Origin: an uncultured Acidobacteriota bacterium
GTDB taxonomy: Bacteria; Acidobacteriota; Thermoanaerobaculia; UBA5066; Gp7-AA6
DNA length: 64,000 bases
Assembly: GCA_963847075.1 (NCBI GenBank)
Contig: CAWJYL010000002.1
Location: 1,276,725 to 1,340,724, forward strand
Direction of reading: 5' to 3'
The notes below the pieces were generated by a model, which had not been told where the DNA came from, ran no database searches, and saw only the letters and a program-made list of their open reading frames with translations. Every line of letters begins with the position of its first letter. Positions within the stretch are counted from its first letter, which is position 1. This document shows, piece by piece, positions 11,279-52,396 of the stretch. The position numbers and the translations under genes were made by a program.

Positions 11279-11290
11279 GGCTGCCGATTA

Positions 11291-13639: not shown

Positions 13640-13648
13640 TCCCTGTTT

Positions 13649-16009: not shown

Positions 16010-16172
16010 TTCGATTCTCAGGAGCGCATCCCCCGGCCGATTCTAGCCGGGCTGCTGTCTCGATGGGCGGAAACGCCCTGTCATCCTGGGCGCCGGCGAC
16101 GAAGGACGCCGCACTCGACCGCCACTGCCGGTATCGAGCCCGGCGCCCTCCGCGACGCTCAGGACGACAACG

Positions 16173-32322: not shown

Positions 32323-32467
32323 GGCCGTCTGATCCCCGAGTGTACCTTCCGCGACGGCGATTTTCCGCTCCCCGGGGACGCGCAAAGCCCTTACAATGCC
32401 GGCAGGTCGGCGTGTGGCTGGCCGCACCGCCGCTCCCCTGCAGCCCGGCGGCCGCAAGCGACCTCTC

Positions 32468-33565
32468 ATGAAATTCGTCGTCGTCGTGGGTACACGCCCG
32501 GAGGCCATCAAGATGGCTCCCGTCATCCGGCGCCTCCGGGAGGAGACGGGCAGCCAGACTCTTCTCTGCGCGACGGCCCAGCACCGCGAGATGCTCGACC
32601 AGGTCCTCGCCCTCTTCGCGCTCGAACCCGACATCGACCTCGACCTCATGCGCCCGGACCAGACGCCCAACGAGCTCGCCTCGCGCGCCCTGGCCGGGCT
32701 CGACGCGGTGATCGCGCGCGAGAGGCCCGACTGGCTCCTCGTCCAGGGGGACACGACGACGGCCATGTGCGCCGCGATCGCCGCCTTCCACCGCCGGGTC
32801 AAGGTCGGTCACGTCGAGGCCGGCCTGCGCACGGGGGATTTCCAGCATCCCTTCCCCGAGGAGATGAACCGCCGGGTCGTCGATCTGATCTCGGACGCGA
32901 ACTTCGCGCCTACACGCCGCGCCGCCAAGGCGCTTGCCGCCGAGGACGTCCCCGAAGCCAAGATCTTCCTGACGGGCAACACGGTCGTCGACGCCCTCGA
33001 GCAGATCGTCCGCGGCGAGGGCGACTCGCCCGAGGAGGACCTCGTCCTGATCACGGCGCATCGCCGCGAGAGCTTCGGGCTTCCGCTCGAGGGCATCGTG
33101 CGGGCGATCGGGCGTCTGGCAAGCGCGTTTCCCGCGACGCGCTTCATCCACGTGATCCATCCGAACCCCAACGTCGCTTCCGTCGTGCGCCGCAACGCGG
33201 GGCTGCCCAACGTGACCCTCGTCGAGCCGCTCGACTATCTCGCCCTCGTCCGGCTCATGCGCCGCGCGCGCCTCATCCTCACGGATTCCGGCGGCATCCA
33301 GGAGGAGGCGCCGACGTTCCACAAGCCGGTGCTCGTCCTGCGCGAGAAGACCGAGCGCCCCGAGGGTGTGGAGGCGGGGCTCGCCGAGCTCGTCGGCACG
33401 GACGAAGAGCGGATCTACGAACGTGCCCGCACGCTTTTGAGCGACGGCGCCGCGCGCCGCCGGATGGCCGGCCGGGCGAACCCTTACGGCGACGGCCGGG
33501 CGGCCGAGCGGATCGCGGCGATCCTCTCCGGGCGGCCCTTCGCCCCTTTCGCGCCGCCCCCATGA
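32468..33565 (+). CDS. wecB: UDP-N-acetylglucosamine 2-epimerase (non-hydrolysing)
   Basis: MKFVVVVGTRPEAIKMAPV..., HVEAGLRT, TDSGGIQEEAP. Confidence 0.9.
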   Translation: MKFVVVVGTRPEAIKMAPVIRRLREETGSQTLLCATAQHREMLDQVLALFALEPDIDLDLMRPDQTPNELASRALAGLDAVIARERPDWLLVQGDTTTAMCAAIAAFHRRVKVGHVEAGLRTGDFQHPFPEEMNRRVVDLISDANFAPTRRAAKALAAEDVPEAKIFLTGNTVVDALEQIVRGEGDSPEEDLVLITAHRRESFGLPLEGIVRAIGRLASAFPATRFIHVIHPNPNVASVVRRNAGLPNVTLVEPLDYLALVRLMRRARLILTDSGGIQEEAPTFHKPVLVLREKTERPEGVEAGLAELVGTDEERIYERARTLLSDGAARRRMAGRANPYGDGRAAERIAAILSGRPFAPFAPPP

Positions 33566-33593
33566 CCGCCCGCCGGAACGAGCCGACCCGCAT

Positions 33594-34901
33594 ATGAGAC
33601 CGGAATGGGAACGGGGCCTGCGCGGTCGGATCTATGCCTTCGGTCGCCGTGCGGTTCCGATCGCCTGGCGGCGGGCCCTGCGGCGGCGCATGCGGCCCGA
33701 GCGGCTGCTCGGGATCCGCAAGCCCGAAGTCGAGCTCTCGCGCTACGAGCTCGATCCGGGCCGCCCGAGGCCTGGGCGCCCCGACATCGTTATCCTGCCC
33801 ATCATTGCCTGGAGCTACCGCCGCCAGCGCCCGCAACAGCTGGCCGAGGCGCTGGCCCGCCGGCGGATGCGCATCTTCTACGGGTCCCTGCGCGGCACCG
33901 GCGAGCCGGACAGGCCCATCGGCGTCGCTCCCGGGGTGACCCTCCTGCCCATTGCCGGCGCGCGCCGCGAGGACCTCGGGGATCGCAAGCTCGCCGATGC
34001 CGCCCTGGAAGCCGCGTTCGAGAGCCTCGCCGCCTGGCGCGAGCGCTTCGACCTGCGCGAGGCCGTCCTGCTCGTCCAGTCGCCGTTCTGGGCGCCGCTC
34101 GCCGGCCCGCTGCGCGAGAGCTTCGGATGGCGCGTCGTGTACGACTGCCTGGACGCGCACGAAGAGTTCTCGACCAACCGGCCCCAGATCCTCGCCGAGG
34201 CGGAGCGGGAGCTGGCAGGCGGCGCGGATCTCGTCGTCGCGACCTCGGAGTCGCTGCGGAAGCAGATGGCCGCGTTGACCGGCGACTGCCGCCTGCTTCC
34301 CAACGCCTGCGACTTCGATCTCTTCGCGGAGACCCCGGAGCCCGCTCCGGCGGACACCGCGAACCTGACAGTCGGCTACGTCGGCGCCGTGGACGAGTGG
34401 TTCGACATGCCGCTTCTGGCGGGGCTCGCGGCCCTGTGCCCGACGTGGCGATTCGAGATCGTCGGCGGTCTCGAAGGTGTGGCCCTCGAGGTTCCGCGCC
34501 TTCCGAACCTGGCCTTCTACGGCGAACGGCCCCACCGGGAGATGCCCCGGTTCCGCGCACGGTTCGACGTCGAGATCATTCCCTTTCGCCTCTCCGGCCT
34601 GACGCACGCAACCGACCCGGTCAAGCTGTACGAGGCGGCGGCGGCCGGACGGACGGTCGTCGCCACCCCGATGCGGTCCCTCGAACCGTTCGCCCGTCGG
34701 GGGCTCGTGCGCCTCGCGGCGACACCCGAGGAGTTCGTTCGCGAGATCGAGGCGGCCGTGGCCGAGGGGACCGCCGGCTCGCGGCGTCAGCGGGCCTTTG
34801 CGCGCGAGAATACCTGGGACATCCGCGCGGCCACCCTCGAGGGCTGGTTGACCCGGGCGGACACCCGTGGCACCGTGCGGGGCGAGGCCGATCGTTCGTG
34901 A
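33594..34901 (+). CDS. glycosyltransferase, GT-B fold (family 4/1-like)
   Basis: 435 aa. C-terminal GT-B nucleotide-sugar domain (GYVGAVDEWFDMPLL...FDVEIIPFRLS...KLYEAAAAGRTVVAT). Confidence 0.65.
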   Translation: MRPEWERGLRGRIYAFGRRAVPIAWRRALRRRMRPERLLGIRKPEVELSRYELDPGRPRPGRPDIVILPIIAWSYRRQRPQQLAEALARRRMRIFYGSLRGTGEPDRPIGVAPGVTLLPIAGARREDLGDRKLADAALEAAFESLAAWRERFDLREAVLLVQSPFWAPLAGPLRESFGWRVVYDCLDAHEEFSTNRPQILAEAERELAGGADLVVATSESLRKQMAALTGDCRLLPNACDFDLFAETPEPAPADTANLTVGYVGAVDEWFDMPLLAGLAALCPTWRFEIVGGLEGVALEVPRLPNLAFYGERPHREMPRFRARFDVEIIPFRLSGLTHATDPVKLYEAAAAGRTVVATPMRSLEPFARRGLVRLAATPEEFVREIEAAVAEGTAGSRRQRAFARENTWDIRAATLEGWLTRADTRGTVRGEADRS

Positions 34902-34932
34902 GACACAGCGCTTGAGCAAGGGTCCCGCCGCC

Positions 34933-35754
34933 ATGCCCGGCGCTCCGGTCTACGATTCGGCGCGGCAAAGACCCTTCTGGCTCGAGGAGGGGGTGAACCT
35001 CTGGCGTTACCGGGGCCTCGTCCACGAGCTCGTCATCCGCGACATCAAGGTCCGCTACAAGCGGTCCTTTCTCGGGATCCTATGGACGATGCTGGCGCCC
35101 CTGCTGAACATGATCGCCCTCACGCTGGTCTTCTCGGCGCTCCTGAAGATGTCCATCCGAAACTACCCCGTCTATTTCATGGCCGGGTCCATCTTCTGGA
35201 CGTTCTTCTCGCAGACGACCTCGACCGCGACGGCGCAGACCCTTGGCTCCAACGAGCTCGCGAAACGAATGTTCGTCCCGCGCTCGGTCTTCATCGCATC
35301 GGCCCTGGGCGGCGGCCTGGTCAACCTCTTCCTGTCGCTCGTCCCGCTGCTCCTGATCCTCGTCGCGACGGGCTACCCGCTCTACGCAACCTGGGCCTTC
35401 CTGCCCATCTCGGTGTTGATCACCGCCCTCTTCACGGCCGGCGTTTCCCTGGTGCTCTTCACCGTGGCATCGCGGTTTGCCGACATCAAGGAGATGTACC
35501 TCGTCATCGTGCAGACCTGGTTCTTCCTGACGCCGATCGTGTATCACCCATCGATCGTGCCGTTCCGCTACCGGATCGCGCTGTGGGCGAACCCGATGTA
35601 CTACCTCGTCCAGGTCTTCCGAAAGCCGATCTACGACGGCGTGATTCCCTCGGCGGAACTCACCCTCGGCTCGCTCGCCCTCTCGGTCGTCGTTCTCGTG
35701 ACGGGCTGGGTCTTCTTCTGCCACCGCCGCGACAACATGGCTTACTGGAGCTGA
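34933..35754 (+). CDS. ABC-2 type polysaccharide/teichoic-acid exporter permease (Wzm/TagG-like)
   Basis: ABC-2 signature ELVIRDIKVRYKRSFLGILWTMLAPL followed by six TM helices. Confidence 0.8.
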   Translation: MPGAPVYDSARQRPFWLEEGVNLWRYRGLVHELVIRDIKVRYKRSFLGILWTMLAPLLNMIALTLVFSALLKMSIRNYPVYFMAGSIFWTFFSQTTSTATAQTLGSNELAKRMFVPRSVFIASALGGGLVNLFLSLVPLLLILVATGYPLYATWAFLPISVLITALFTAGVSLVLFTVASRFADIKEMYLVIVQTWFFLTPIVYHPSIVPFRYRIALWANPMYYLVQVFRKPIYDGVIPSAELTLGSLALSVVVLVTGWVFFCHRRDNMAYWS

Positions 35755-35767
35755 GCGGGCGAGGATC

Positions 35768-36520
35768 ATGACCGAGGTCATCCGTCTCGAGAAGGTCACC
35801 CTCCGGTACCGCGTGCCGCGGGAGCGCATCTTTTCGCTCAAGGAATATGCGATCCACCGCCTGCAGAAGCGCATCGTGTACGACGACTTCACCGCCCTCT
35901 CCGAGATCGACCTCTCGGTCACGGCCGGCGAGCGCGTGGGCGTCATCGGCCGCAACGGAGCCGGCAAGAGCACGCTCTTCCGGATCATCTCCCGCGTGCT
36001 GCCGCCGGGAGAGGGCCGCGTCTACGTCGCTGGCCGGATCGCTCCGATCCTCGAGCTCGGCCTCGGATTCCACGGCGAGCTCACCGGCCGCGAGAACGTC
36101 ATGCTCCAGGGTGCGCTGCTCGGCTTCTCGCGGGCCGAGACCCGCCGCCGGCTCGACCGCATCGTCGCCTGGGCGGAGCTCGAGGAGTTCATCGACGCGC
36201 CGATCCGGACGTTTTCGACCGGCATGGCCGCGCGCCTCGCCTTCGCCGTCGCGACGGACGTCGATCCGGACATCCTTCTCGTCGACGAGGCCCTCGCCGT
36301 CGGCGACGAGAAGTTCCAGCGCAAGTGCAAGGAGCGCATGGCCGCCCTGCGCTCGGGCGGCAAGACCTTCATGCTGGTCTCCCATTCGCTCCAGCAGATT
36401 CGCCGCACGTGCGACCGCGTGATCTGGCTCCACCACGGACGCATCGTCCGCGACGGCGACGCCCGAACCGTCTGCGACGCGTACCACCTCTGGTCGCTCG
36501 GCGAGACCGACGCGGTCTAG
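35768..36520 (+). CDS. ABC transporter ATP-binding protein (Wzt/TagH-like)
   Basis: Walker A GRNGAGKST, signature FSTGMAARLAF, Walker B ILLVDEAL. Confidence 0.9.
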   Translation: MTEVIRLEKVTLRYRVPRERIFSLKEYAIHRLQKRIVYDDFTALSEIDLSVTAGERVGVIGRNGAGKSTLFRIISRVLPPGEGRVYVAGRIAPILELGLGFHGELTGRENVMLQGALLGFSRAETRRRLDRIVAWAELEEFIDAPIRTFSTGMAARLAFAVATDVDPDILLVDEALAVGDEKFQRKCKERMAALRSGGKTFMLVSHSLQQIRRTCDRVIWLHHGRIVRDGDARTVCDAYHLWSLGETDAV

Positions 36521-36684
36521 CCTCCCCCGTAATCCCGAGGGCGAATTCCACGCGCAGCCAAACCGCCGTAAACGGATCCTCGGCCTGGCGGCCCTCGGAA
36601 TGATCGCGGACGGCGCTGCGGGCTTCGCCGGCGAAAACGAACGGGCGCGGCGTGAGCCGCGCCCGCCATTCGAAGGTCAACGCC

Positions 36685-37260
36685 TTACGGTACGTGCGGC
36701 AGGTTGAACGCCACGCTCAGGAAGACCGCCATCTCCGCGTTCGTCGACCACCCGTTGGTGGGAGCCGGATTGCTCGGGTCGTGGTCCGGGCAGAACAGCT
36801 TCGGACTCGTGCTGCAGCCGGCCGTGATGCCCTCGTTGTAGAGCGCGTTGACCCACGGCGCGAACCCGTTCGAGCACGGCACATCGTCGAAGATCGGCGT
36901 GACGCAGGCGGGCGGTACCCAACCCGACCCGTGCTTGCCGAGCAGGACGAAAACCGCCATCTGCTCGCGCGGAATCGGAGCGTCCGGGCAGTACAACCGC
37001 GGGTTCACGCTGCATCCCGCCGTGATCCCGTCGTCCACCAGGCCCTGGATGTAGTTGGCGTTGAAGTCGTTGAAGAACACGTCCTGGAACTCGCCCAGAT
37101 AGACCGGCGGGGATGTCTGCGATCCGTGGATCGCCCGCTCGATGTACCCGGCCATCGCGGCGCGGGTCACGAGCGAGCCCGGACAGAACAGGTAGTACTC
37201 GCAGCCATGCATGATGCCGGCGCCAGCCGCGCCGTAGGCGAAGTTCCAAGCGAAGCTGTC
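36685..37260. repeat. duplicated block, copy 1 (3' end of surface-protein gene A)
   Basis: Near-identical to 39870..40445 (offset 3185 bp). Mirrored by the identical alternate-frame ORFs 36848..37054 and 40033..40239. Confidence 0.75.
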
Positions 37261-39831
37261 AACCGGGACGTCGTTGAAAAGAACGGTAAGGTTGACGGGC
37301 ACGGGCGCGACAGGGTCGGGCGTGTCCGTCTCGACCTTCAATTGCGCCTGGCGCAGTCCGGGAAGCAGGCCCGCGGAGTTGAAGGTCACGGTCACCGGGA
37401 AAGGATTCGCGGCAACGTTGCGCGGCCGCACCGGTGCCGCACCGGGAACCGTGCCGGATGTCGGGCTCTCGGAGAGCCACGGAATGTCGATCGAGCAGAA
37501 GTTCTCCTCGCCGGAGTCGACCTCGTAAAGCGTCTGCGTATACTGATTGACCATCCACAAGTGACCGTCGCAATCGGCCTCCATGCCGGCGCCGCCGTGG
37601 TCGTCAAAGGCGCCGTCGGAGACGTGGAAGCTGCCGACGAGGGCGTAGTTGCTCTTCGCATCCAGAACCGAGATGGCGTTGTCGTCGAGGTCCTGGACCT
37701 GCACGAAAAGATGCCCTGTCTTCGGGTAGTACGCAAGGCCCGAGATGCCGAGACCCACGTACGCCGAGTCGAGAATCGTCCCCGCCGGGTCGAAATGGTA
37801 GATCGTGGCATCGAGCCACGAGCCCATGTAGTAGGTGTCCGTCGTTGGATCGTAGGCGAGGCCGCGCTCGGACGTGTCGATCTCCGTGCAGATCGTATTG
37901 CCCGTGACCTTTCGGGTCGACGGGTTCACTTCGAAAATGCACGCCGGAGCGGTCCCGTCGGTGGTGGCGACGTACCACATCATTCCGGTGTTCGCGTTGA
38001 ACGTCCCGTCAGCCGCCCACAGTGTGATCGCAGAGCTGATGTCGATCGTTGCATCGGTTTTCGTGGCATCCGAAAGGAACTTGTACAGGTCGGGCGTGAA
38101 GATGTCCGTCAGCCAGGTTGCGTCTGCGCTCTTGTCGAATCCCACACCCCATCCCTGATCGAGATCGGTCGAACCGGATGCCAGGATGTTTCCGGCGGCA
38201 AAGGGAAACTTGGGTTTGACGGGTCCGGAGAATCTCGGAACCGGGGCCAAGCCCTTCGCATCCGCGGCGCCGGATAGCGTGCGCCGCTGCTTCGAGTCCT
38301 TGGGCAGCCGAGCGAGAGCCTGGTTTCTGAGAGCCGGTGAGGCGAACCCCTGCGTCAGGGAGGGCTTGGGCGGAATGTTGACCTCGAAAAGGTGGAAAGC
38401 GACATCCTGAGCGCCCGTATCGGTCAGGTCGAGCGTGAGGTCCTGGATGCTGTTGGTCTTGATGAAGGAGGAAAGGGGCTGCGGGCTCGCGTTCAACTGC
38501 CCCGCCGGCAGCACGAAGTCCTGCCGGACGACGCCGCCCAGGGCCACGGTCGGAGTCTCCTGCTCGGACACGTAGAACTGCTTCGCAGCCTGCAGGGTCT
38601 GCGCGCCCGCCGGGCAGAAGAGCGTGTAGAAGCCGTTTCCCTGGCCCGGATCCTCCGGCGTCGGAAATGTCTCCGTCGAGGAGCTGTTCCCGAGGTTCGT
38701 GACCGTGGCGTCATCGACGCCGTTTCCCGTGTTGGCGTTAGAGACGTTTCCGACGACGAGCCCTCCCGCTTGCGCCTGGCAAGTCGCCTCGGGATCGCCG
38801 AGCAGGACGTTGTCCACCTGCCACCAGCCACCCCAGAAGCTCTGGTAGTGGAAGCGGGCTTTCACGTTCGCCTGCCCCGCCGCAACACCCGAGATGTCGG
38901 CCGACTGGACCGAGGGCCCGACGATGTTGTCGCTCCCCGTCGCCTCCCAGACGTTCGTCCACGTGGTGCCGCCGTCGGTGCTGATGTCCACGTCGCCGAC
39001 CTGGGTGCGGTCGCAGAAGCTGCACTGTATGAACTCGGTGTTCCACTGGATGACGGCATTCGCGAGGGACGACATGTCGAGGCTGGGTGTGACCAGAGAT
39101 GTGTCGTCCGTAGTCTCGAGATCCGAAAAACACTGACTGTTCACGAGGGCGTAGGGGCCCGAACCACCCGTGTTGTTGCCAGGGAAGCTGCCGCAGGGAT
39201 CCCCGAGCGCCGTCACCTTCCAGTGCGCGCTGCCGGAGACGTTAACCACTTCCCAACCGGGGGGGACCTTGTCGGTCGAGAACGTCTCGAAGAGCGAGCC
39301 AACCGGGTAGCTGTATCCGGGAGCCGTGCATTCCACCGCGTCGATCTCCAGGGCCCAGTCCTGCTCGACCGGTCCATCCGTGGTCACCGGCCCGCCGCCC
39401 GGCAAATAACCGGGGCCGACGGCGGTCACGACGAACGTGTAGTCGACGCCGTCGGGGAGATCCATCGAATAGGCGCCCGTGACCGGGTCCGTGAAGACGA
39501 CGACGGGCTCCGTCGAATCCGACGTCGCCTCGATCCGCGCATAAAGCGGCCACCCGGCGCCCGAGCCGTCCGTGACCGTGCCGCTGACCGTGACGTTCGC
39601 GGTCACAGCCGTTGCCCGTCTGGCTCCAGCGATCCGCTTTGTCGTCGCCACCGGCCTGGCCGGAGAGTTGGCGGCGGCCGTCTTCGCCGGGGCCGCGACC
39701 CGAATTCCAGACGCAGCCCCCTTTTCGGGACGCGCGCCCTGCGCCAAAAGGACCAGCGAGTTTCCGGCAGCGGCGATGCACGCCACCGAGACCACCCGAG
39801 CCATGAGCTTCTTCACCAACGACCTGTTCAT
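36685..39831 (-). CDS. large secreted surface protein A: signal peptide, MAM/jelly-roll-like domain, Cna-B-like and beta-propeller-like repeats, three C-terminal SLH-like domains
   Basis: 1048 aa. GGAGGG then ATG (MNRSLVKKLMARVVSVACIAAAG). C-terminal triplicate motif GITAGC...L(Y/F)CPD...REQMAVF of SLH type. The upstream part of ORF 36685..40686 is an artefact of the duplicated DNA. Confidence 0.7.
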   Translation of the reverse strand: MNRSLVKKLMARVVSVACIAAAGNSLVLLAQGARPEKGAASGIRVAAPAKTAAANSPARPVATTKRIAGARRATAVTANVTVSGTVTDGSGAGWPLYARIEATSDSTEPVVVFTDPVTGAYSMDLPDGVDYTFVVTAVGPGYLPGGGPVTTDGPVEQDWALEIDAVECTAPGYSYPVGSLFETFSTDKVPPGWEVVNVSGSAHWKVTALGDPCGSFPGNNTGGSGPYALVNSQCFSDLETTDDTSLVTPSLDMSSLANAVIQWNTEFIQCSFCDRTQVGDVDISTDGGTTWTNVWEATGSDNIVGPSVQSADISGVAAGQANVKARFHYQSFWGGWWQVDNVLLGDPEATCQAQAGGLVVGNVSNANTGNGVDDATVTNLGNSSSTETFPTPEDPGQGNGFYTLFCPAGAQTLQAAKQFYVSEQETPTVALGGVVRQDFVLPAGQLNASPQPLSSFIKTNSIQDLTLDLTDTGAQDVAFHLFEVNIPPKPSLTQGFASPALRNQALARLPKDSKQRRTLSGAADAKGLAPVPRFSGPVKPKFPFAAGNILASGSTDLDQGWGVGFDKSADATWLTDIFTPDLYKFLSDATKTDATIDISSAITLWAADGTFNANTGMMWYVATTDGTAPACIFEVNPSTRKVTGNTICTEIDTSERGLAYDPTTDTYYMGSWLDATIYHFDPAGTILDSAYVGLGISGLAYYPKTGHLFVQVQDLDDNAISVLDAKSNYALVGSFHVSDGAFDDHGGAGMEADCDGHLWMVNQYTQTLYEVDSGEENFCSIDIPWLSESPTSGTVPGAAPVRPRNVAANPFPVTVTFNSAGLLPGLRQAQLKVETDTPDPVAPVPVNLTVLFNDVPVDSFAWNFAYGAAGAGIMHGCEYYLFCPGSLVTRAAMAGYIERAIHGSQTSPPVYLGEFQDVFFNDFNANYIQGLVDDGITAGCSVNPRLYCPDAPIPREQMAVFVLLGKHGSGWVPPACVTPIFDDVPCSNGFAPWVNALYNEGITAGCSTSPKLFCPDHDPSNPAPTNGWSTNAEMAVFLSVAFNLPHVP

Positions 39832-39869
39832 GAACGATCCCTCCTTCAGTCGAAGCGACATGGGCCCGC

Positions 39870-40445
39870 TCACGGAACGTGGGGCAGGTTGAACGCCACA
39901 CTCAGGAAGACCGCCATCTCCGCGTTCGTCGACCACCCGTTGGTGGGAGCCGGATTGCTCGGGTCGTGGTCCGGGCAGAACAGCTTCGGACTCGTGCTGC
40001 AGCCGGCCGTGATGCCCTCGTTGTAGAGCGCGTTGACCCACGGCGAGAACCCGTTCGAGCACGGCACGTCGTCGAAGATCGGCGTGACGCAGGCGGGCGG
40101 TACCCAACCCGACCCGTGCTTGCCGAGCAGGATGAAAACCGCCATCTGCTCGCGCGGAATCGGAGCGTCGGGGCAGTACAACCGCGGGCTCACGTTGCAG
40201 CCCGCCGTTATCCCATCGTCCACGAGACCCTGGATGTAGTCCGCGTTGAAGCTGCTGTAGAAGACGTCCTGGAATTCGGCCTGATAGACGGGCGGCGACG
40301 TGAGGGGCCCATGGACTGCCCGCTCGATGTAACCCGCCATGGCGGCACGGGTCACCAGCATGTTGGGACAGAAGTCGTAGAAGGAGCAGCCGCGCATGAT
40401 GCCCGCGCCGGCGGCGCCAGAGATGAAGTTCCACGCAAAGCCGCC
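39870..40445. repeat. duplicated block, copy 2 (3' end of surface-protein gene B)
   Basis: See copy 1. Confidence 0.75.
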
Positions 40446-43400: not shown

Positions 43401-44678
43401 CGGGGCGTAGGTACTCTCCTGATAGAGCGTAGGCGTTGGGCCCGGGTTCCGGATCTCGAACCATCGGATCGCCGCTGGCCCGTCGGCCGTGCCGACGGTG
43501 AAGTTGCCGACGAGCGCCTCATGGTCGCCGAAGTTGCGGTACGGGAGCCGGAACATCATGTCGCCGACGAGCGTCTCGAGCAGCTCCGTCGAGCCGAGCT
43601 GCGGAACGCACTGGTCGCGGAAATTGGCGCAAACGGGAACGATGAACGAAGAGACCGGAATCGCGATCGGGCCTGTCATCGTGCTGTTGGCCGGCACCGC
43701 CCAGTCGACGTGGAACTCGAACATGTGAAGGGTCGACGTGTCGTACCAGTCGAGCAGATAGTTTGGAGCTCCCACCGGGGGCGGCGTCATGCCGTCGAGG
43801 TCCGAAGGCAAGAGTCCCCCTTCGGAGTCTCCGAGGCTGAATCCGATGGACGCGGCCGCGCTGCCCACGAGCATCTTGCTGCGGTCGAAGGCGAACGCCA
43901 GTCCCTCGAATCCGCCAGCGTCCGGAAACCCGTTGAAGGTGACGTAGTAGCCGTCGGGCCAGATTCCCAGCTTGGGGTAGTCGTTGAAGACATTCGGGCT
44001 GATCAGGAAGTCGTACGCATAGTAGGCGCCGGTCGGGTCGCCCGTCGCAGAAACCGCGATGCATTGGTCGTAGGACGTCCCCGTGACCGAGAACTGAGTA
44101 AGGACCCATCGGTCGGCAAACTTGTCGTATTTCGCGACCGGGTCGCCGTTGTTGGTGTTCTTGCAGTTTCCCGGAAGGCTCTGCCACAGCGAGTTGCCCG
44201 GCAATGGCCCCATGACGAGCGTTCCGGTCTTATCGTAGACCGCCCAGATCCCGTTGATGTACTCGACGTAGTGGTTCGGACCGACATCGCCGTTGGTGTC
44301 GGGCGGGACGAAACGGGTGCCAACCGTGACCGCGTTGTCATCGTCCGAAAGCCCTTCGAACTGGCCTACTTCATCGGGTTGGGACTTCCCGAATTGCTTC
44401 TGGACGACCGGATCCGCGACCGGCGCCGAACCGGACCTCTTCTTCGGGACGATGTCGTTCCTGACCTGCATCTTCGCGACCGGACTGACGGGACCAACGA
44501 ACCTGAAATCGCGCATCGGCGTCGTAATCACGTGCGCGACGTCGGAGCCGACCGACGGCGTTCGATTGACGGATGGCGCCACCTGCTCGCTCGCGAGGAG
44601 GGAAGTCGCAACGAGAGAGAGACCGATACCAACGGAGACAAACGAAACCGAGAGCCTTGTCGCCGAGTTCCGGTGCAT
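39870..44678 (-). CDS. giant secreted surface protein B: signal peptide, ~500-aa unassigned N-terminal domain, CarbopepD_reg-like and MAM-like domains, beta-propeller-like region, three C-terminal SLH-like domains
   Basis: 1602 aa. ATG with GGAGG. Signal peptide MHRNSATRLSVSFVSVGIGLSLVATSLLA. C-terminal 105 aa nearly identical to protein A. Confidence 0.7.
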   Translation of the reverse strand: MHRNSATRLSVSFVSVGIGLSLVATSLLASEQVAPSVNRTPSVGSDVAHVITTPMRDFRFVGPVSPVAKMQVRNDIVPKKRSGSAPVADPVVQKQFGKSQPDEVGQFEGLSDDDNAVTVGTRFVPPDTNGDVGPNHYVEYINGIWAVYDKTGTLVMGPLPGNSLWQSLPGNCKNTNNGDPVAKYDKFADRWVLTQFSVTGTSYDQCIAVSATGDPTGAYYAYDFLISPNVFNDYPKLGIWPDGYYVTFNGFPDAGGFEGLAFAFDRSKMLVGSAAASIGFSLGDSEGGLLPSDLDGMTPPPVGAPNYLLDWYDTSTLHMFEFHVDWAVPANSTMTGPIAIPVSSFIVPVCANFRDQCVPQLGSTELLETLVGDMMFRLPYRNFGDHEALVGNFTVGTADGPAAIRWFEIRNPGPTPTLYQESTYAPDSSYRWMGSIAQDASGDMALGYSKSDTTIYPSIAITGRLPGDTLGTMGAEDVFLNGGGSQTASFNRWGDYSSMSIDPTDDCTFWYAQQYYAATGSFDFKTRIASFKFPSCTNPVATGSISGTVTDGVNPIPGVFVTAGPYSRSTDASGNYQFAGVPVGSYDMTALKYGYTPGAASGIVVAEGANTVQDFVLGLNLTLPVNGVVKDGSGQGWPLFARVEILPGPGGFPGATIYTDPVTGYYSTNLVAGLTYDFVVTSVNPGYAPGGGPVTVSIPPGNGPGAVVVNWSLVAGGACNAPGYVPGTLGTPVLDESFDAGTLPPGWAIDTPSGPGWEIHTGADPCGEFGGNRTGGTGPFALLNSNDSNGDCNQPLANDDSSLITKSVDLSTLPNAVINWANDYIDLGTSAQVDVSIDGGANWTNVWSAVGSSVPGPGTQTADMTFAIGHPDVKARFHFQGYWGWWWQVDNVKIAPTSCTPVPGGLIVGTVTDSNSGTGLNGATVANLPQPGSPKATTATTPSQGAGYYTLFNGSGSQSFEASKDGYAALTKNVTVVPNGVTRLDFSLLAGKLGASPRPLTMVLNPGGIQSLTLNLSNSGTGSGTFSLKELNAPASAAASAPHPSFATALDRMAAIKRIPFARQNARDPKGLSPLPKPAKPLANPPAGTAGNVVSSFAAGVASPFGVAYNTDANNLWVTSPDAPADSSFGDGLDHQYLPDGMPTGNTIDITSTGGEWQADGTYNVRTGMMWNVNVGGDNCLYESDPTTAVVTGKKICGSAWTATSQRGVAYDPLTDTYYVGGWNEGIIYHIDSAGNVLDSANVGLFIGGLAFNPSTGHLFVYDAVFFEPIDMWVLDPRNGYAVVNEFNITSGGNPVFPTLAGMDMSCDGHLWLVDQNTGSVLEVDSGESSACVLPEIPWLSESPTSGTVPASVGGQPASVGTNPFPVMTTFDATGLLPGLRQAQLLVKTDTPYPIAPVPVNLTVLFNDVSQGGFAWNFISGAAGAGIMRGCSFYDFCPNMLVTRAAMAGYIERAVHGPLTSPPVYQAEFQDVFYSSFNADYIQGLVDDGITAGCNVSPRLYCPDAPIPREQMAVFILLGKHGSGWVPPACVTPIFDDVPCSNGFSPWVNALYNEGITAGCSTSPKLFCPDHDPSNPAPTNGWSTNAEMAVFLSVAFNLPHVP

Positions 44679-44949
44679 GCAGAACCTCCGTTGGGGAATA
44701 CAATGAAGAAGCCAGAAGCTGCGACTAGATCACCCGTCAAGTTTTAGTGTCAATAGGAAACGTCGGCGGCAGCTTTCGTGCACAGGCACTTGTGCACCAC
44801 CTGACCGAAGAGCCGATGGGCCGGAAGCAAGAGTCGGAACCGTTCATTGATGCGGCACGCCTTCAACGAACAGAGGGGCGCCCACAATCGCCGGCACAAT
44901 ACAAGCCTTCTGGAAATATGGACGAATCCGGCTCCCGCCTCCCGCAGGC

Positions 44950-46932
44950 CTACGGCAAGGGCAGCGCGAAGGTCGTCGTCAGGAAAACCGCCATTTCGGC
45001 ACGCGAGACCGGCGCGTTAGGACAGAACTTCCCGCTTCCGCAGCCCGCCGCGATCCCGCGATGGTAGAGGTCCTCGATGAAGTCGACGGCGAAACCGCCA
45101 GGGCACGGCACGTCCGAAAACACCGGACTCCCCGGCTTGCAAGCTGGCGGTACGTAGCCCGGGTCGCGCATGCTCAACAGGAAGACGGCCATTTGCGCCC
45201 GGGTGACCGGGTCGCCCGAGCCGTAGGTGCCGTTCGGGTAACCGGCGGTGATCCCCCGATGGTAGAGGTCTTCGATGAAGTTCACGGCGAAGCCGCCAGG
45301 ACAGGGGACGTCCGAAAAGACGGGACTACCCGGGACGCAGGCCGGCGGAGCGTAGGTCGAGCCCTGGCTCGCGACGAGCAGCAAGACCGCCGTCTGGGCC
45401 CTCGTCGCAATTCCGTCCGGGCAGAACAGGCGGAGATCGCAACCCGCGGTAACGCCGGCGTCGTGGACCGCCTGGATGAACTTGAAAGCCCAGTAGCCGT
45501 TCGGCACGTCGAGGAACGTGGGATTGATGTCGAGCGTCCCGGGGGCGGAGGTGCCTCCACCGGGCGCCGGATTGAAGACCGTAGCGGCGGCGCTGCCTGC
45601 CGCCGCGATGTCGCTTGCCGGCACGGCGGCCGTCAGCTTTGCGGCCGAGACGAAGGTGGTCGGACGGTCGGAGCCGTTGATGCGCACCACCGACTCCGCA
45701 ACGAAGCCGGCCCCGTTGACCGTCAGGGTGAAGGCCGGGTCGCCCGCAATCACGGAGGCGGGCGAGATGCTCGAGATCGAAGGCTGCGGCAGCGCCGTCG
45801 CGTCGAGGCGGTAGATCTTTCCGCCGAGGTTTGCGACATAGAGCTCGCCCGCTTCGTCCTCGCCGAAGCTCGAGACCGAGAGGGAGGTTGCGAGCAGGAG
45901 CGACGTGGTCCAGCTCCCGCCAGCCCCTGCGGTGGCAGCGTAGAGGTCACCGAGGCAGGAATCGGAGTAGACGTAGTCTCCATAGAGGGACGGGATCGCC
46001 GAGCCGCGGTAGCGCAGGCCACCGATGATCGCGCACCAACCGCCGTTTGGTGAATTGTGATTGTGCTCGAGGATGGGGAGGGTCAGGCTTCCATCGTTGC
46101 AGTTGTTCGAGGGGTTGTAACAGTGGAGGCCTTCCATCATCCGCCAGCCGTAGTTCTCGCCGCCGGTCGACGTCACGGGCTGAAAGTCGATCTCCTCATA
46201 GAGGTTCTGGCCCACGTCGCCGATGAAGAGGTCGCCCGTGACGCGGTCGAACGCGAAACGCCACGGATTGCGCAGGCCGTACGCCCAGATCTCCTTGCAG
46301 TCGGTGTCGCTGCCGGCGAAGGGGTTCGACGCCGGGATGGCGTAAGGTTTCGCTCCGGTCTGCCCGCACGGCACCGCGCCGGTCCCATCGACGTCCAGGC
46401 GGAGCATCTTGCCGAGCAGCACCGAGAGCGTCTGCGCGTTGTTCGGCGGATCGCCGCCCGAGCCGCCGTCTCCGGTGCCGACGTAAAGATAACCGTCGGT
46501 CGGGCTGAAGTAGAGCTGCCCGCCGTTGTGATTCGCGTTGGTCGGGTGCGGCACGACGAGAACGATCTGCGCCGACGCGGGGTCGGCCACGTCCGGGTTC
46601 GCGGAGACGTGGTACCGCGCGATCGTGATGTCGCCGGGACTCACCAGCGTGTTGACGTAGTAGACGTAGAAGTAGCCATTCGAGGCGTACTTCGGGTGGA
46701 AGGCGACCGAGAGCAAGCCCTGCTCGCCGCAGCAGGTCACGAGCCCCGAGATGTCGAGAAACGGCGTCGCAAGAAGCGCGCCGTTCTTGTAGATACGGAT
46801 CGTGCCTGCTTGCTCGACGACGAAGAGCCGGCCCGAGCCGTCCCCCGCGTTGGCGATGTGGACCGGCGACGAGAGGGTGCCCGGCATCTGCGTGAGTACG
46901 ACCGAGGGAAGAGCGCGGAGATCCGACGGCAA
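44950..46932 (-). CDS. glucose/sorbosone dehydrogenase (GSDH, PQQ-type beta-propeller) fused to an IPT/TIG domain and three SLH-like domains
   Basis: GSDH motifs ([53 protein letters not shown]). TIG domain [11 protein letters not shown]...TLTVNGAGF. Three [11 protein letters not shown]...GITAG...[12 protein letters not shown] repeats. The annotated TTG start lacks a signal peptide; see the finding on an upstream frame problem. Confidence 0.7.
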
Positions 46933-47135
46933 GAGAGCGCAGACGGCAAAGACACCGAGGACGAGGCGAGAGACACGTCGCGCGATCGAGCGGGCTTCCT
47001 CGAATTTTCATGATGCGCTCGATTGTAGGGTGCGGCTCCGCTCGGCGGAGGCGCTTCTACTTACGTTAATGTGAGGCGACGGTGATCGCGCTCACACTCG
47101 GCGCGGGAGAGAAAGTCGGGTCCCGCAGCGGCGCT

Positions 47136-47153
47136 CCTGTTCGCGCGAACAGG
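47136..47153. promoter_or_regulatory. perfect 18-bp palindrome cctgttcgcgcgaacagg in the 485-bp region upstream of the SLH-protein gene cluster
   Basis: Seen directly in sequence. Candidate operator. Confidence 0.3.
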
Positions 47154-47497
47154 CGACGGCTGTAACGACGACCGATCCCCTGTTCTTTTGTGCCGCTCCG
47201 CGCCTTTTGAGGACCGAGGCGCGTGCCGGCAGGAAGCGCCGCGGCGAGCAGCCGGTGCGCAGACGGCCGTTCTTGAATCCGGTTTTCCACTTTCTTCGAT
47301 CCCGGCGCGACTATGTATATCGGCGCCACGGTCCTCCCCGGCGCGAAGGTGCGTGCCCGGTCGCGGCGGGAGGCGCCCGAGCGGCAAAGCCGACGTGCTG
47401 CTTGCCGTTGACGCGCGACGTGGAGCTGCGCATCATGCGGTGTTGCGCGAAGCTAATGCATTGCCGAGCGGAGGCGGTCCGTCGGTCTACCGGGTCT

Positions 47498-47746
47498 CTA
47501 TTTAGTCGCCGACGAGTCCAGCATGCGAACGATCAAGCGAACACTGTCGAAATTGTTCGCGTCGAAGCCTTCCGCCGCGAAGTCGAAGCCGAGCTCTTCC
47601 TCGAGTCCGACGACGAGATCGAGCACATCGATCGACGCCAGGCGCCCACTCATGATGAAAGAGTCCTCGTCGGCGAATCCCGCCGTGTCGCCTTTGGCCG
47701 AAAGAACCTTCGCCACCAGTTTCCGTACCACAGCGGCTTTGTCCAT
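47498..47746 (-). CDS. acyl/D-alanyl carrier protein-like (phosphopantetheine-binding)
   Basis: 82 aa: MDKAAVVRKLVAKVL...FIMSGRLASIDVLDLVVGLEEELGF (Ser in a DSL-type motif). 4 nt downstream of the MBOAT gene. Confidence 0.6.
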   Translation of the reverse strand: MDKAAVVRKLVAKVLSAKGDTAGFADEDSFIMSGRLASIDVLDLVVGLEEELGFDFAAEGFDANNFDSVRLIVRMLDSSATK

Positions 47747-47750
47747 GGAT

Positions 47751-49139
47751 CTACTGTAGACGAATCCCGAAAAGATGGAACAGGAACCGGAAGGAGTCTC
47801 CGAATCCATTTTCCGGGCCAGCGCTCTCGAAAACCACCAGGAGACAGTAGAAGAGCCAGACTCCCGCCACCGGCATCACCCGGCCTCCGAAGGCTTCGCT
47901 CCGGTCCAGGGAACGACGCCGGCCTCGCAGCTGGGACACCGCGATGCCCGCGGCCATGACGAGGTTGACGAAGACATGCACCCGCATGCCCAGCAGGGCT
48001 TTCCAGAAACCGAGCTCGATGACGTGCTGGGGGTAGGAGAAGAATTGGTACATGCTGTTGCCCAGGCCGACCGCGGCGAAAGTGGCGGCAACGACTCGCA
48101 GCCGGGGGTGGCGCCTGAAATATCGCACGAACGTCGGATAGAAAAAGCAGTCCACGAGAAGTTCCTTGTAGTAGTAGTACCAGCGGTTCCAGAAGTCCCC
48201 GATCGTTCGCGCCTGCAGGGGCCTGCACGTGTTCCGGAGCGCCCGAAAGCCCGCCATCCTGCAGATCGCCACGACGAAACCGCCCCGAATCGAGAGGCCG
48301 AGTACATCGCCGAGGAACTGCGAGACCAGACTCGCCCAGCACATGTACCAGGGAAGCGGCTGGCCCAAGACGCTCCGGCGGAACGTTGCGTACAAATACG
48401 GCACGGCAAAGCGAGACAGAGGTCCGAGTCCGAGGGCCCTGAGGGGCGCCGCCAGGTGGGCGGCCTGGCCCGTCACTTGGCCGTGGACGAACAGGTGGAA
48501 CAACTGCTGCGTCACGAGCAGCACCAGGGACCAGGCCAGGAGCTTGATGGCTTTGAGCTGGCAAACGGCCAGATCTTCTGGCGACTTCGCCTCGATCTTT
48601 CTCAGATAGGCGGCGCCCTTGACGAAGGGAGTGGGCGCATCGGTGACCGTCCAGAACGGCAAAAACGTGCCGACTTGAAGAGGGACCGGATCCCGGTCGG
48701 GCGAGTTTCGATCGAGCAGCGCGTAGCTGAAACACCAGAGGTAGCCTGCGCCAGCGGCGACGAAGGCCCAGGCGACGACGCGCCAGAGACCCGACAGAGG
48801 GGCGAGAGAGGTGCACAAAACGAGAGCGGTATATGAGAGATACAGGGTCAACAGAGGTCGCCGCACAAGCAGAGAAGAACCTCCACGATTGATGATTCGT
48901 AACCCGACAGTGAAGAGGGCCAGCATGACCAGAAGAACGACCCGGTAGACGAAGGAAGCGTTCAGCGTCCCCAGCCCCTCCTGTTTGATCGCGTCTCCGA
49001 CGATGTCGGTACGGTTCCAGATCGGATGCGCGATTATCCAGTAGACGACGCTGAGGCTCAGCAGGGTCCTCCGACGGCTCGGGAAGAGCATGATCAGGCC
49101 GAGAACGGCAAGGATCTCGAAAAACTCCGGGAACCGCAT
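47751..49139 (-). CDS. MBOAT-family membrane O-acyltransferase (DltB/AlgI-like)
   Basis: Polytopic. MBOAT signature region DFWNRWYYYYKELLVDCFFYPTFVRYF, with Tyr where the catalytic His of FWxRWH is expected. Start at the ATG (MRFPEFFEIL); an alternative GTG lies at 49208. Confidence 0.6.
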   Translation of the reverse strand: MRFPEFFEILAVLGLIMLFPSRRRTLLSLSVVYWIIAHPIWNRTDIVGDAIKQEGLGTLNASFVYRVVLLVMLALFTVGLRIINRGGSSLLVRRPLLTLYLSYTALVLCTSLAPLSGLWRVVAWAFVAAGAGYLWCFSYALLDRNSPDRDPVPLQVGTFLPFWTVTDAPTPFVKGAAYLRKIEAKSPEDLAVCQLKAIKLLAWSLVLLVTQQLFHLFVHGQVTGQAAHLAAPLRALGLGPLSRFAVPYLYATFRRSVLGQPLPWYMCWASLVSQFLGDVLGLSIRGGFVVAICRMAGFRALRNTCRPLQARTIGDFWNRWYYYYKELLVDCFFYPTFVRYFRRHPRLRVVAATFAAVGLGNSMYQFFSYPQHVIELGFWKALLGMRVHVFVNLVMAAGIAVSQLRGRRRSLDRSEAFGGRVMPVAGVWLFYCLLVVFESAGPENGFGDSFRFLFHLFGIRLQ

Positions 49140-49243
49140 GGTAGCGAGCAACGCGGCAAAAACAGCCAGGGCCGCCGCCTTGCCCGCCGGTGTTTGCACA
49201 AAGGCCACGATTCGGGGATCGCGGTCGATCCGAGGAATGATCC

Positions 49244-50842
49244 TCAACTGTCCTGCTTCCCGTTCGTCTTGTCTTCGCGTTCGAGCAGTCCGGAAAGCGC
49301 TTTGCGGTCCACCTTGCCGCTGCTGCCGAGCGGCAGGGTTTCCAGAAACTCGAGGCGAGAGGGAACCATGTAGGCGGGGACTCTCCGTCGCATCGATTCC
49401 CGTATCTCCGCCGCGGAACGCGTCGTGCCGCTCACGAAGGCGACGATGCCCTTTGCCGATCCCGCGTCTACGGGCCACGCGACGCACGAGACGAGGTCCG
49501 ACCCACAGACTTCCCGCAAATGAGCGTCGACCTCCTCGAGCTCGACCCGATTGCCGAGCACCTTGACCTGATGATCGATGCGGCCGAGATGATGGAAAAG
49601 CCCGTCGGCGTCCTGGTAAGCGAAGTCGCCGGTGAGATACCACGTCTTCCCCTCGATGGTCGGAAAGCGGGCCTCCGTCTGGGCCGGGTCCGCGAAGTAG
49701 CCTCGGGCGATCTGAGCGCCGGAGAGGGCGAGCTCGCCCTCTCTGCCACGTGGCAGGAACTTCCGATCGGGACCGACGACCGCCGCCTGCATGCCGGTGA
49801 AGGGCTTGCCGATCGCGACGATTCCTCGATCACGGGTCACCGGTATCGGGTCCGAGACGCGTTGCACGAGGCAAGCGACCGTCGCCTCGGTCGGGCCATA
49901 GAGGTTGTCGACGATGCTGGCGGACGCGGCCTCCCGCCAGGCTCTCGCGCTGCTGGCGGGCAGAGGCTCGCCGCAAAAGAGCGAGTACCGAAGAGTTGGG
50001 AAGGCGCCCGCTGAAAGCATCTTCATCTGGCGCATGAAACCGATGGTGGACGGAACGGAAAACCAGACCGTCAGGGCCTGCTCGCGGATGAAGCGGTAGG
50101 GCCCCATCAGCTGCGAAGCGGGAACGACGCAGAGGCAGGCGCCCGCGCCCCAGGTCATGAAGAGATCGAAGACAGAGAGGTCGAATGTCAGCTCGAAGGC
50201 CTGTGAGATCCGATCGTCCGGTCCGAACCCATAACGCTTCTGGAGCACCGAAAGCAGGTGATGCACGTTGCCTGCGGAAATCATGACTCCTTTGGGTACT
50301 CCGGTCGTCCCCGAAGTGAACATGACGTACGCGAGTTCATCCGGCCCCACCGGCCGGGGCGCCCGGATCGCGTCGGGCGACGGGAGACGATCACGGCCGT
50401 CTATGCGCATGCGACCACGCCGCTCCGCCTCGAGCGAGAACGAGTCGGCGCGGCATGGAGAAAGGATCCGCGCAGGGCAATGGTCGAGCAGCCGCCGGGA
50501 AAGAAGCCCGATCCTCGCGTCGTCGATGATCAAGGCGTCGGGCGCGATGATGTCGAGAACTCGGATCAAACGCTCTTCGGGCGCGTTTGGGCTGAGCGGC
50601 ACGTAGGCGGCGCCAGCCCAGCAGGCTCCGAGGACTCCCGCGTAGGTTTCCAGGCTGCGCGAGGCCAGAACGGCGACGCGGGCTTGAGCGCGAGCCGGTG
50701 CCTCCTCGAGCCAGGCCGCAATCTGCCCGGCCATTTCCGCCAGGCGCCCATAGTTCGTGTCCGACCCATCTATGCGGAGCGCCGGTCGGTCCGGGTTGGC
50801 TCCGGCCTGCACACGGAATGGTAGCGCCAGGTTCAGGCTCAT
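49244..50842 (-). CDS. AMP-dependent synthetase/ligase (adenylation enzyme, DltA-like)
   Basis: AMP-binding motif FTSGTTGVPKG. Adenylation core YGPTE, LTGD, C-terminal GK. Confidence 0.8.
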   Translation of the reverse strand: MSLNLALPFRVQAGANPDRPALRIDGSDTNYGRLAEMAGQIAAWLEEAPARAQARVAVLASRSLETYAGVLGACWAGAAYVPLSPNAPEERLIRVLDIIAPDALIIDDARIGLLSRRLLDHCPARILSPCRADSFSLEAERRGRMRIDGRDRLPSPDAIRAPRPVGPDELAYVMFTSGTTGVPKGVMISAGNVHHLLSVLQKRYGFGPDDRISQAFELTFDLSVFDLFMTWGAGACLCVVPASQLMGPYRFIREQALTVWFSVPSTIGFMRQMKMLSAGAFPTLRYSLFCGEPLPASSARAWREAASASIVDNLYGPTEATVACLVQRVSDPIPVTRDRGIVAIGKPFTGMQAAVVGPDRKFLPRGREGELALSGAQIARGYFADPAQTEARFPTIEGKTWYLTGDFAYQDADGLFHHLGRIDHQVKVLGNRVELEEVDAHLREVCGSDLVSCVAWPVDAGSAKGIVAFVSGTTRSAAEIRESMRRRVPAYMVPSRLEFLETLPLGSSGKVDRKALSGLLEREDKTNGKQDS

Positions 50843-52322: not shown

Positions 52323-52396
52323 TGGCTGGGAGGCAGGGACTCGAACCCCGATTCACTGGTCCAGAGCCAGTTGTCCTACCATTGAACGACCTCCCA
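52323..52396 (-). tRNA. tRNA-Gln (anticodon CUG)
   Basis: 74 nt. 7-bp acceptor stem UGGGAGG/CCUCCCA, U8, 5-bp anticodon stem with loop CUCUGGA, T-loop TTCGAGT, discriminator G, encoded CCA. Confidence 0.8.

Follow-up and report, generated by a model that had tools for sequence, protein, structure and literature searches.

A stretch of 64,000 nucleotides (nt) from an uncultured acidobacterium of Thermoanaerobaculia (contig CAWJYL010000002.1), hereafter the window, carries at positions 32468-50842 genes for the synthesis and export of a glycan, genes for three large secreted proteins with C-terminal surface-layer homology (SLH) domains, and a Dlt-like cassette. A sequence-only reading of this segment had taken these modules for a single, previously undescribed surface-layer system, and the locus raises the question of which of them belong together and what kind of system they form. 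Our analysis indicates that the locus is an uncharacterised case of a known type, namely SLH-anchored envelope proteins beside ABC-dependent glycan export, rather than a new kind of system, and the unity of the three modules did not hold up. The reading that we prefer, and hold with modest confidence, is that of a variable locus of a diderm envelope in which an SLH-protein array is combined with the export of a glycan containing N-acetylmannosamine (ManNAc), the inserted cassette being functionally separate.

The secreted proteins and their SLH triads

The open reading frame (ORF) listing and the family scans reproduced the coordinates and the order of the genes in 32468-50842 as they had been read from the letters (G+C content of the window, 63-71%). 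The ClpB of the window is 81-88% identical to proteins which, where their source is named, are all called 'Thermoanaerobaculia bacterium', in agreement with the class of the host. Four plus-strand genes (wecB, a GT-B glycosyltransferase, Wzm and Wzt), closely packed or overlapping, converge on three minus-strand genes for large secreted proteins, which we call P1, P2 and P3. A BamD/YfiO lipoprotein is also encoded in the window (PF13525, 107.7 bits); it fits a diderm envelope, as had been proposed for the host. For comparison we used five related loci (L001, L005, L006, L089 and L090). The three proteins and their recognisable parts are listed below with their lengths in amino acid residues (aa).

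36685..39831, minus strand: P1, 1048 aa, paralogue of P2 residues ~620-1602 (51% identity over 1066 columns)
36688..37278, minus strand: SLH triad of P1 (motifs TRAA / PREQ / TNAE; GxxxG in all three repeats)
39870..44678, minus strand: P2, 1602 aa, multi-domain secreted protein
39873..40463, minus strand: SLH triad of P2 (Pfam 27.9 bits, homology to the P3 triad, profile match to Sap and SbsB)
40674..41426, minus strand: NHL-type beta-propeller of P2, residues ~1085-1335 (profile matches to Pizza designer propellers, ~4e-11, and to the PknD NHL sensor, 7e-6)
41994..42566, minus strand: jelly-roll of P2, cleaved-adhesin / reelin-B / MAM-like, residues ~705-895 (profile and Pfam)
43059..44396, minus strand: N-terminal seven-bladed beta-propeller of P2, residues ~95-540 (no Pfam model)
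44950..47011, minus strand: P3, ~685 aa (GSDH 1e-35, TIG 1.7e-6, SLH 1e-23, NF058597 5e-33)
44953..45516, minus strand: SLH triad of P3 (motifs TRAQ / TRAQ / SRAE; three Pfam repeats)

That all three proteins end in SLH repeats had been proposed from their motifs, and the comparison with family models and solved structures bore this out. The C-terminus of P3 contains three Pfam SLH repeats (88.8 bits) and also matches the solved SLH structure of Sap. P1 and P2 gave one weak Pfam repeat each, of 18 bits in P1 and 27.9 bits in P2 (isolated C-terminus), that is, below and above the gathering score of 20.8 (PF00395 / PROSITE PS51272), respectively. The P1 and P2 triads are 87% identical, and the C-terminus of P2 aligns end to end with the triad of P3 (39% identity, E=1e-32). 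When a profile built from twelve P1/P2-type C-termini was compared with the sequences in the PDB, it matched Sap (6e-14), SbsB (6e-13; profile positions 7-190, spanning the triad) and also OmpM-type SLH chains. By these comparisons a genuine SLH triad forms the C-terminus of each of the three large proteins, in P3 according to the Pfam repeats, and in P1 and P2 according to the homology to P3 and the profile match to solved structures. The residues in contact with 4,6-pyruvyl-ManNAc in SpaA are SLH-Gly29 (in GIIxG) and SLH-Arg43 (in TRAE), and functional SpaA has the contact Arg in two of its three repeats (PMC6081394). The contact Gly (GxxxG) is present in all nine repeats of P1-P3, and the contact Arg in three of three repeats in P3 and in two of three in both P1 and P2.

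The triads and the remainder of the proteins have evolved differently. Over their final 300 nt (36685-37000 and 39870-40185), the P1 and P2 genes are identical at 293 of 300 positions, and elsewhere the proteins that they encode share about 50% identity. Between paralogues of one genome the identity of the SLH triads is 77-88%, and between genomes 59-74%, as against 48-60% for the passengers, and the greater likeness of triads within a genome was found in every genome checked (the window, L001, L005, L006 and L089). This points to concerted evolution of the SLH anchors within each genome, and the pattern suggests that exposed passengers diversify on anchors, all of which would have to fit a single ligand specific to the genome.

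Each of the three proteins has an N-terminal Sec signal peptide. In P2 it is followed by the N-terminal seven-bladed propeller, Ig-like CarboxypepD_reg domains, the jelly-roll, the NHL-type propeller and the SLH triad, and in P1 by CarboxypepD_reg (29 bits), the jelly-roll, the NHL-type propeller and the SLH triad, without the N-terminal propeller. More than 5000 homologues of P2 were found, named just 'carboxypeptidase regulatory-like domain-containing protein', none of them having a functional name; many of them, about 1580 aa in length and with SLH at the end, originate from metagenome-assembled genomes of Thermoanaerobaculia. The part of P2 that had been described as a 500-aa unassigned domain turned out to be a generic seven-bladed beta-propeller, with the motifs GPNHY, NDYPK.G.WPDGYY and RWGDYS..DP.DDCTFWY. 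Over 580 metagenome loci encode propellers of this type, some as stand-alone secreted proteins of about 550 aa, others joined to C-terminal modules of various kinds; by this distribution, the propeller is an independently mobile domain. Note that most of the metagenome loci found via this propeller (L009-L088) lack the rest of P2 and are hence uninformative on synteny with wecB or SLH genes. The jelly-roll had been called MAM-like: the fold was retained, with a closer relation to Cleaved_Adhesin and Reelin-B and a marginal one to MAM. Its profile matched the K3 and K2 adhesin domains of gingipain (1.8e-5 and 6.6e-5), and Pfam gave Cleaved_Adhesin in 8/18 members, Reelin_subrepeat-B in 10/18 and MAM in 1/18.

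P3 consists of the signal peptide, a GSDH/HHIP-type beta-propeller, an IPT/TIG domain ('choice-of-anchor Z' repeat) and the SLH triad; 'choice-of-anchor' domains are found on sorted surface proteins. The GSDH model (PF07995, PQQ-dependent soluble glucose/sorbosone dehydrogenase) gave 123.7 bits against a cutoff of 25, and TIGR03606 gave 43 against 434. Among solved structures, HHIP, which is not an enzyme, is the best match (4e-36), and bacterial dehydrogenases match less well (~4e-15). Of the earlier description of P3 as a gene of at least 660 aa, the gene stands and the length is corrected to ~685 aa: the TTG-initiated ORF encodes 660 aa without a signal peptide, and the same frame just upstream encodes the signal peptide. 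In the alignment with the L005 orthologue (79% identity), ATGAAAATCCAGG in L005 corresponds to ATGAAAATTCGAGG in the window (46990-47015), and P3 carries one additional nucleotide directly after the ATG at 47011. This 1-nt insertion shifts the ATG out of the frame of the signal peptide; judging from the alignment, it is a true frameshift or else an indel of the assembly.

Related loci and the inserted cassette

An SLH array beside wecB-GT-Wzm-Wzt (GT, glycosyltransferase) recurs in L005 and L090, the two relatives that show this end of the array; the arrays of L001 and L006 extend past the 10-kb flank, and their wecB/ABC end lies outside the view. In L005, a GT gene on the minus strand is followed by a P3 orthologue (79% identity), two full-length P2 paralogues (58% and 54%) and then convergent Wzt-Wzm-GT-wecB genes, which are 91-96% identical to those of the window. 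L090 has an array of at least four SLH proteins followed by convergent ABC-ABC2-GT-epimerase genes and by GltX, DegP and ClpB, which is the right flank of the window; its neighbouring genes are 71-91% identical to those of the window and its P2 51%. L089, L001 and L006 share the left flank (ThiF, a conserved unknown protein, Pterin_4a and tRNA-Gln), after which come P2/P1 pairs and a LamG-GSDH-SLH protein. By this synteny, the lineage keeps an array of SLH proteins at a fixed site between conserved flanks, with a copy number and content that vary strongly. The SLH proteins also diverge much faster than their neighbours, as is seen against L005 in the values for the operon (91-96%), P3 (79%) and P2 (58/54%).

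The operon for an adenylation enzyme, an MBOAT-fold (membrane-bound O-acyltransferase) protein and a carrier, which had been noted upstream of P3, is present, and two further features adjoin it.

47498..47746, minus strand: carrier protein, 82 aa (PP-binding 19.7 bits against a threshold of 20.8; weak acyl carrier protein models)
47751..49247, minus strand: MBOAT-fold membrane protein, 498 aa, of a discrete family without a Pfam model
49244..50842, minus strand: stand-alone adenylation enzyme, 532 aa, of the DltA / non-ribosomal peptide synthetase A-domain type (TIGR01733 325.3 bits, cutoff 317.4; AMP-binding 8e-70)
51244..52095, minus strand: sec283, 283-aa secreted protein without a Pfam match (G+C at third codon positions, GC3, 0.77; in composition part of the inserted block)
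52323..52396, minus strand: tRNA-Gln(CTG), with which the variable segment begins; L001, L006, L089 and L090 have this tRNA in the corresponding position

The core motifs of the A-domain are legible (FTSGTTGVPKG, NLYGPTE, YLTGD, GRIDHQVK and GK), and its scores with the DltA subfamily model (265 bits) and the DltA equivalog (250.7 against 559.9) are below the cutoffs. The carrier stands as a small protein, 47% identical to an 81-aa gene in the same position in another locus (L007), with a PP-binding score that falls just short of the threshold. The label MBOAT, which the sequence-only reading had given to the membrane protein, holds for the predicted fold and not for a match to MBOAT or DltB at the sequence level: no Pfam match was obtained even at E<=10, the DltB model TIGR04091 gave 20.9 bits against a cutoff of 375, and the profile of the family matched no PDB sequence. 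In the AlphaFold2 model (pLDDT 86.8, pTM 0.86), the top eight Foldseek matches are all MBOATs (DltB 6bug/8jem, HHAT, DGAT1 and SOAT1; probability 0.72-1.00, TM 0.30-0.53), the top four having a probability of 1.00 and a TM of 0.43-0.53, with DltB as the best structural match. According to this model, the protein is MBOAT-fold and closest to DltB. Its family is small: of 1.84 billion clusters at 50% identity, 1030 match at E<=1e-3. Its members invariably come with an adenylation enzyme and a carrier.

From the sequence comparisons we regard the cassette as a separate accessory insertion and not as part of the SLH locus proper, because it is absent from the relatives, has a lower GC3, is adjacent to tRNA-Gln and recurs alone elsewhere. 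The cassette was absent from this position in all five related loci. Its GC3, together with that of sec283, is 0.75-0.79, compared with 0.83-0.93 in the neighbours, and the cassette with sec283 lies directly 3' of tRNA-Gln(CTG), where the cargo differs between loci: PAP2/acyltransferase/MFS genes in L001 and L006, and small ORFs with a GT gene in L089 and L090. The trio recurs in unrelated neighbourhoods as a self-contained three-gene unit (A-domain of ~508 aa, membrane protein of ~473 aa and 81-aa carrier, with overlapping stop and start; identities of 53%, 42% and 47%, respectively). No copy of sec283 was found in any related locus, nor is it conserved with the cassette elsewhere.

These observations bear directly on whether the modules form one integrated system, in which the cassette would aminoacylate the Wzm/Wzt glycan or the SLH ligand and so tune the attachment of the SLH proteins. 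The modules are adjacent, the cassette is on the same strand as P3-P1, and a precedent is established in Dlt, which D-alanylates wall polymers (PMC12148441). The cassette is, on the other side, missing in all five relatives, including one whose neighbouring genes are 91-96% identical, has the lower GC3, is separated from P3 by a gap of 490 bp and is found elsewhere without SLH proteins or wecB/Wzm/Wzt; we consider such integration very improbable, and the claim that the three modules act as one was given up. By analogy with DltA, DltC and DltB, the mechanism of the cassette as a separate unit is probably DltABC-like: it would activate an amino acid, load the carrier and pass the load across the inner membrane to an acceptor.

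An integrase-type island at tRNA-Gln was considered and rejected: a search for an att-like direct repeat flanking the tRNA-Gln-adjacent block found none, and no integrase gene turned up among the scanned genes. On the plus strand beyond the tRNA (52901-53932), a 343-aa secreted protein with no Pfam match is kept beside ThiF, and a second paralogue of it (36-39% identity) flanks the P2-P1 pair in L001 and L006. Promoter and terminator scans of the locus gave results no better than those of shuffled controls, and the tRNA was the sole Rfam match.

Glycan export, ligand and location of the proteins

The export operon consists of the following genes.

32468..33565, plus strand: wecB, non-hydrolysing UDP-GlcNAc 2-epimerase, product UDP-ManNAc (TIGR00236 427 bits, cutoff 210; Epimerase_2 1e-107)
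33594..34901, plus strand: GT-B (GT4-like) glycosyltransferase, 435 aa (Glyco_trans_1_4 5e-7, Glyco_trans_1_2 1e-5)
34867..35754, plus strand: Wzm-type ABC-2 permease (ABC2_membrane 4e-17, 62.8 bits)
35768..36520, plus strand: Wzt/TagH-type ABC ATPase, 250 aa (ABC_tran 5e-21, 76.1 bits)

The wecB ORF opens at 32396, and the alignment of its orthologues starts at 32468; the identity of wecB is 91% to L005 and 81% to L090, and that of the GT-B gene 93% and 71%. This GT-B/GT4-like enzyme is the single GT of the operon and has a weak TuaH-like match (71 bits, cutoff 550). The more specific models of the exporter pair all remained below their cutoffs (NF050109, NF050108 and TagH), including the Wzm/RfbD model for the permease (82 bits) and the Wzt/TagH-type models for the ATPase (1e-57), and the ATPase has no C-terminal carbohydrate-binding domain. 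The family scans nevertheless support the earlier statement that wecB and an ABC-2 exporter adjoin the SLH genes, and the pairing of a permease and an ATPase beside genes for glycan synthesis, wecB and the GT, is that of Wzm/Wzt export. In L090 (17820-18679) the gene call splits the Wzm orthologue in two (products of 211 and 71 aa), which suggests a frameshift or an assembly error there. Divergent from wecB, a 110-aa zinc-ribbon-like protein is encoded on the minus strand (31993-32322); it is 91% identical in L090, above every neighbouring gene.

In the reading that we prefer, wecB, the GT4-type GT, Wzm and Wzt would make UDP-ManNAc and export an undecaprenol-linked, ManNAc-containing glycan, and P3, P2 and P1 would be a Sec-exported array that faces this operon convergently. 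Their C-terminal SLH triads would dock them non-covalently on an anionic glycan of the envelope, in all likelihood pyruvylated, and the passengers (beta-propellers, Ig-like CarboxypepD_reg, the adhesin-type jelly-roll and the GSDH-type propeller) would form an exposed, fast-diversifying coat or enzyme display. Gene conversion would keep the anchors alike within each genome so that all paralogues fit the same ligand. The adjacency of the operon and the array is suggestive because the only structurally defined SLH epitope is 4,6-Pyr-beta-D-ManNAc, of which UDP-ManNAc is the precursor (PMC6081394).

Several observations weigh against this reading; they concern the glycan, the location of the proteins, the start of P3, which in this assembly has an out-of-frame start codon, and the cassette. 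As for the glycan, the conserved adjacency runs on into the housekeeping genes GltX, DegP and ClpB, and since the synteny also covers these genes, the adjacency may reflect shared descent and not functional coupling. In addition, among the window genes that were scanned, none matched csaB (PS_pyruv_trans, PF04230), GT26/TagA, an LCP ligase or an initiating phosphoglycosyl transferase, and csaB was also missing from the ±10 kb gene lists of the five related loci. The exported glycan is therefore not identifiable as the SLH ligand, and the label 'secondary-cell-wall-polymer-like', which had been given to the exporter, is unproven; GT26/TagA and an LCP ligase may be encoded elsewhere in the genome. 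These findings bring up the alternative that the operon and the array are chance neighbours, the operon making O-antigen, capsule or another glycan, and the SLH ligand being made elsewhere or the triads binding modified peptidoglycan directly. The equally kept synteny across housekeeping genes, the single GT and the lack of a pyruvyl transferase in the scanned window genes agree with this alternative, and so does the binding of polyamine-modified peptidoglycan by SLH in Negativicutes (10.1101/2021.05.31.446380). Against it are the role of UDP-ManNAc as precursor of the only structurally defined SLH epitope and the adjacency kept in both relatives with a visible array end, and we consider it rather unlikely, if a serious competitor.

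As for location, we see neither a signal for translocation across the outer membrane nor a beta-barrel or a dedicated secretion system. We infer a 'surface layer' for P1-P3, and from the Sec signal peptides alone a tethering to the wall in the periplasm could equally be read in a diderm. P1-P3 would then be Sec-exported periplasmic proteins held by their SLH domains on a peptidoglycan-linked polymer, like the SLH parts of OmpM and SlpA, with P3 as a tethered periplasmic sugar dehydrogenase and P1 and P2 as binding or scaffold proteins. Soluble GSDH-family enzymes are periplasmic in E. coli, and P3 belongs to the GSDH family. A periplasmic location is also consistent with the presence of Sec signal peptides without an outer-membrane barrel or a type I secretion, type IX secretion or PEP-CTERM signal, and with the characterised SLH ligands of diderms, which are peptidoglycan-linked polymers in the periplasm (preprint 10.1101/2021.05.31.446380). 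It accords poorly with the very fast divergence compared with the neighbouring genes, a pattern typical of exposed proteins, and with the adhesin-type and Ig-like passengers in a protein of ~170 kDa. PKD-type C-termini are typical of extracellular proteins, and homologues of the P2 core in Anaerolineae end in these in place of SLH. Taken together, we think the periplasmic location improbable, though worth keeping in mind beside the exposed coat.

As for the cassette, the window protein reads FWNRWYYYY at the site of FWxRWH, which, with its invariant catalytic His, we take to be the DltB motif and used to place the column in the family; the placement follows from the local match to TIGR04091 and from this motif. 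In the 238 members compared, the column of this His is never His (Y172, F17, N14, S9, others). Y359, K361, E362, R330, R355 and R384 of the family are conserved to at least 99%, and in the window copy Gln replaces the one His that is conserved to 95%, and Val a Tyr that is conserved to 96%. Bacterial MBOAT systems are typified by an SGNH partner (DltD/PatB) and an acyl-shuttle Tyr in FxYxxF, in DltX or at the MBOAT C-terminus (PMC12148441). No SGNH, DltD or DltX partner was found among the neighbouring genes, and no FxYxxF motif is present, the C-terminus of the family being FRFLxHLF without Tyr. With these substituted residues and without a shuttle motif or an SGNH partner, a DltB-like mechanism is therefore not assured.

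Elsewhere in the window, three tandem paralogues of ~800 aa each with YfhO-like (GT-C membrane glycosyltransferase) C-terminal matches are encoded on the minus strand (8864-16042); they adjoin rseP, dxr, cdsA and uppS and may be another locus for the modification of envelope glycans.

Comparison with known systems

The exporter genes resemble Wzm/Wzt and TagGH export in that an ABC-2 permease and an ATPase likewise stand beside a GT and a nucleotide-sugar epimerase; they differ in that the specific equivalog models are all below cutoff and the ATPase lacks the glycan-binding C-terminal domain. The cassette shares with DltABCD(X) and with the MBOAT-SGNH pairs (PatAB and AlgI/J) a stand-alone A-domain, a small carrier and an MBOAT-fold protein in one operon, whereas it lacks DltD/SGNH, DltX and the FxYxxF Tyr and has Tyr, Phe, Asn or Ser in the His column. 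In AlmEFG, which glycylates lipid A in Vibrio cholerae, a DltA-like ligase and a DltC-like carrier modify an envelope component of a Gram-negative bacterium; AlmG is an enzyme of the lipid A acyltransferase family, not MBOAT-fold like the membrane protein of the cassette. This MBOAT-fold family, and the seven-bladed propeller present in hundreds of soil metagenome loci, are two families without a Pfam model that may repay biochemical study.

The sole sequence link to a known S-layer family is with the Kustd1514-family S-layer glycoprotein of anammox Planctomycetes (NF052345), which is similar in size to P2 (~1600 aa) and matches it locally with 68 bits over ~110 residues that are CarboxypepD_reg-like. 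Membership of P2 in this family was rejected, the score being 68 bits against a cutoff of 1400 and one Ig-like domain being covered. OmpM, SlpA and Ompα of diderm Terrabacteria likewise have SLH in a two-membrane envelope and bind a wall-linked polymer; they have one N-terminal SLH, a coiled coil and an outer-membrane beta-barrel, and P1-P3 have a C-terminal triad and no barrel. With the SLH proteins of Firmicutes (Sap/EA1 of B. anthracis, SpaA/SlhA of P. alvei and SbsB of G. stearothermophilus), P1-P3 share the tandem triad, GxxxG, (T/S/P)R(A/E)x and large multi-domain passengers, and in both cases a wecB-type epimerase, which supplies ManNAc for the epitope of the secondary cell wall polymer, is nearby. 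P1-P3 differ in that their host is a diderm acidobacterium and in that the triad is C-terminal and cysteine-rich (GC....FCP, not G..DGTF.P). In addition, no csaB, tagA or LCP gene was seen here.

Acidobacteriota belong to the Gracilicutes. According to a survey, SLH and CsaB are virtually missing from the Gracilicutes and are a trait of Terrabacteria (10.1101/2021.05.31.446380), and reviews of S-layers and pyruvylation barely mention Acidobacteria. The SLH array is worth attention here because of this reported near-absence, and its fixed site beside a ManNAc/ABC operon offers a testable entry to the little-known cell surface of a widespread soil group. In a bolder and rather doubtful version, Thermoanaerobaculia would run a Terrabacteria-style SLH/glycan anchoring, with a hypervariable coat of ~1600-aa propeller/adhesin proteins held by disulfide-rich triads on a Wzm/Wzt-exported ManNAc glycan, perhaps at the external side of the outer membrane, and with anchors that co-evolve with the ligand via intragenomic gene conversion. 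If true, this would be an exception to the divide between Terrabacteria and Gracilicutes in the use of SLH and CsaB and a new type of S-layer for Acidobacteriota.

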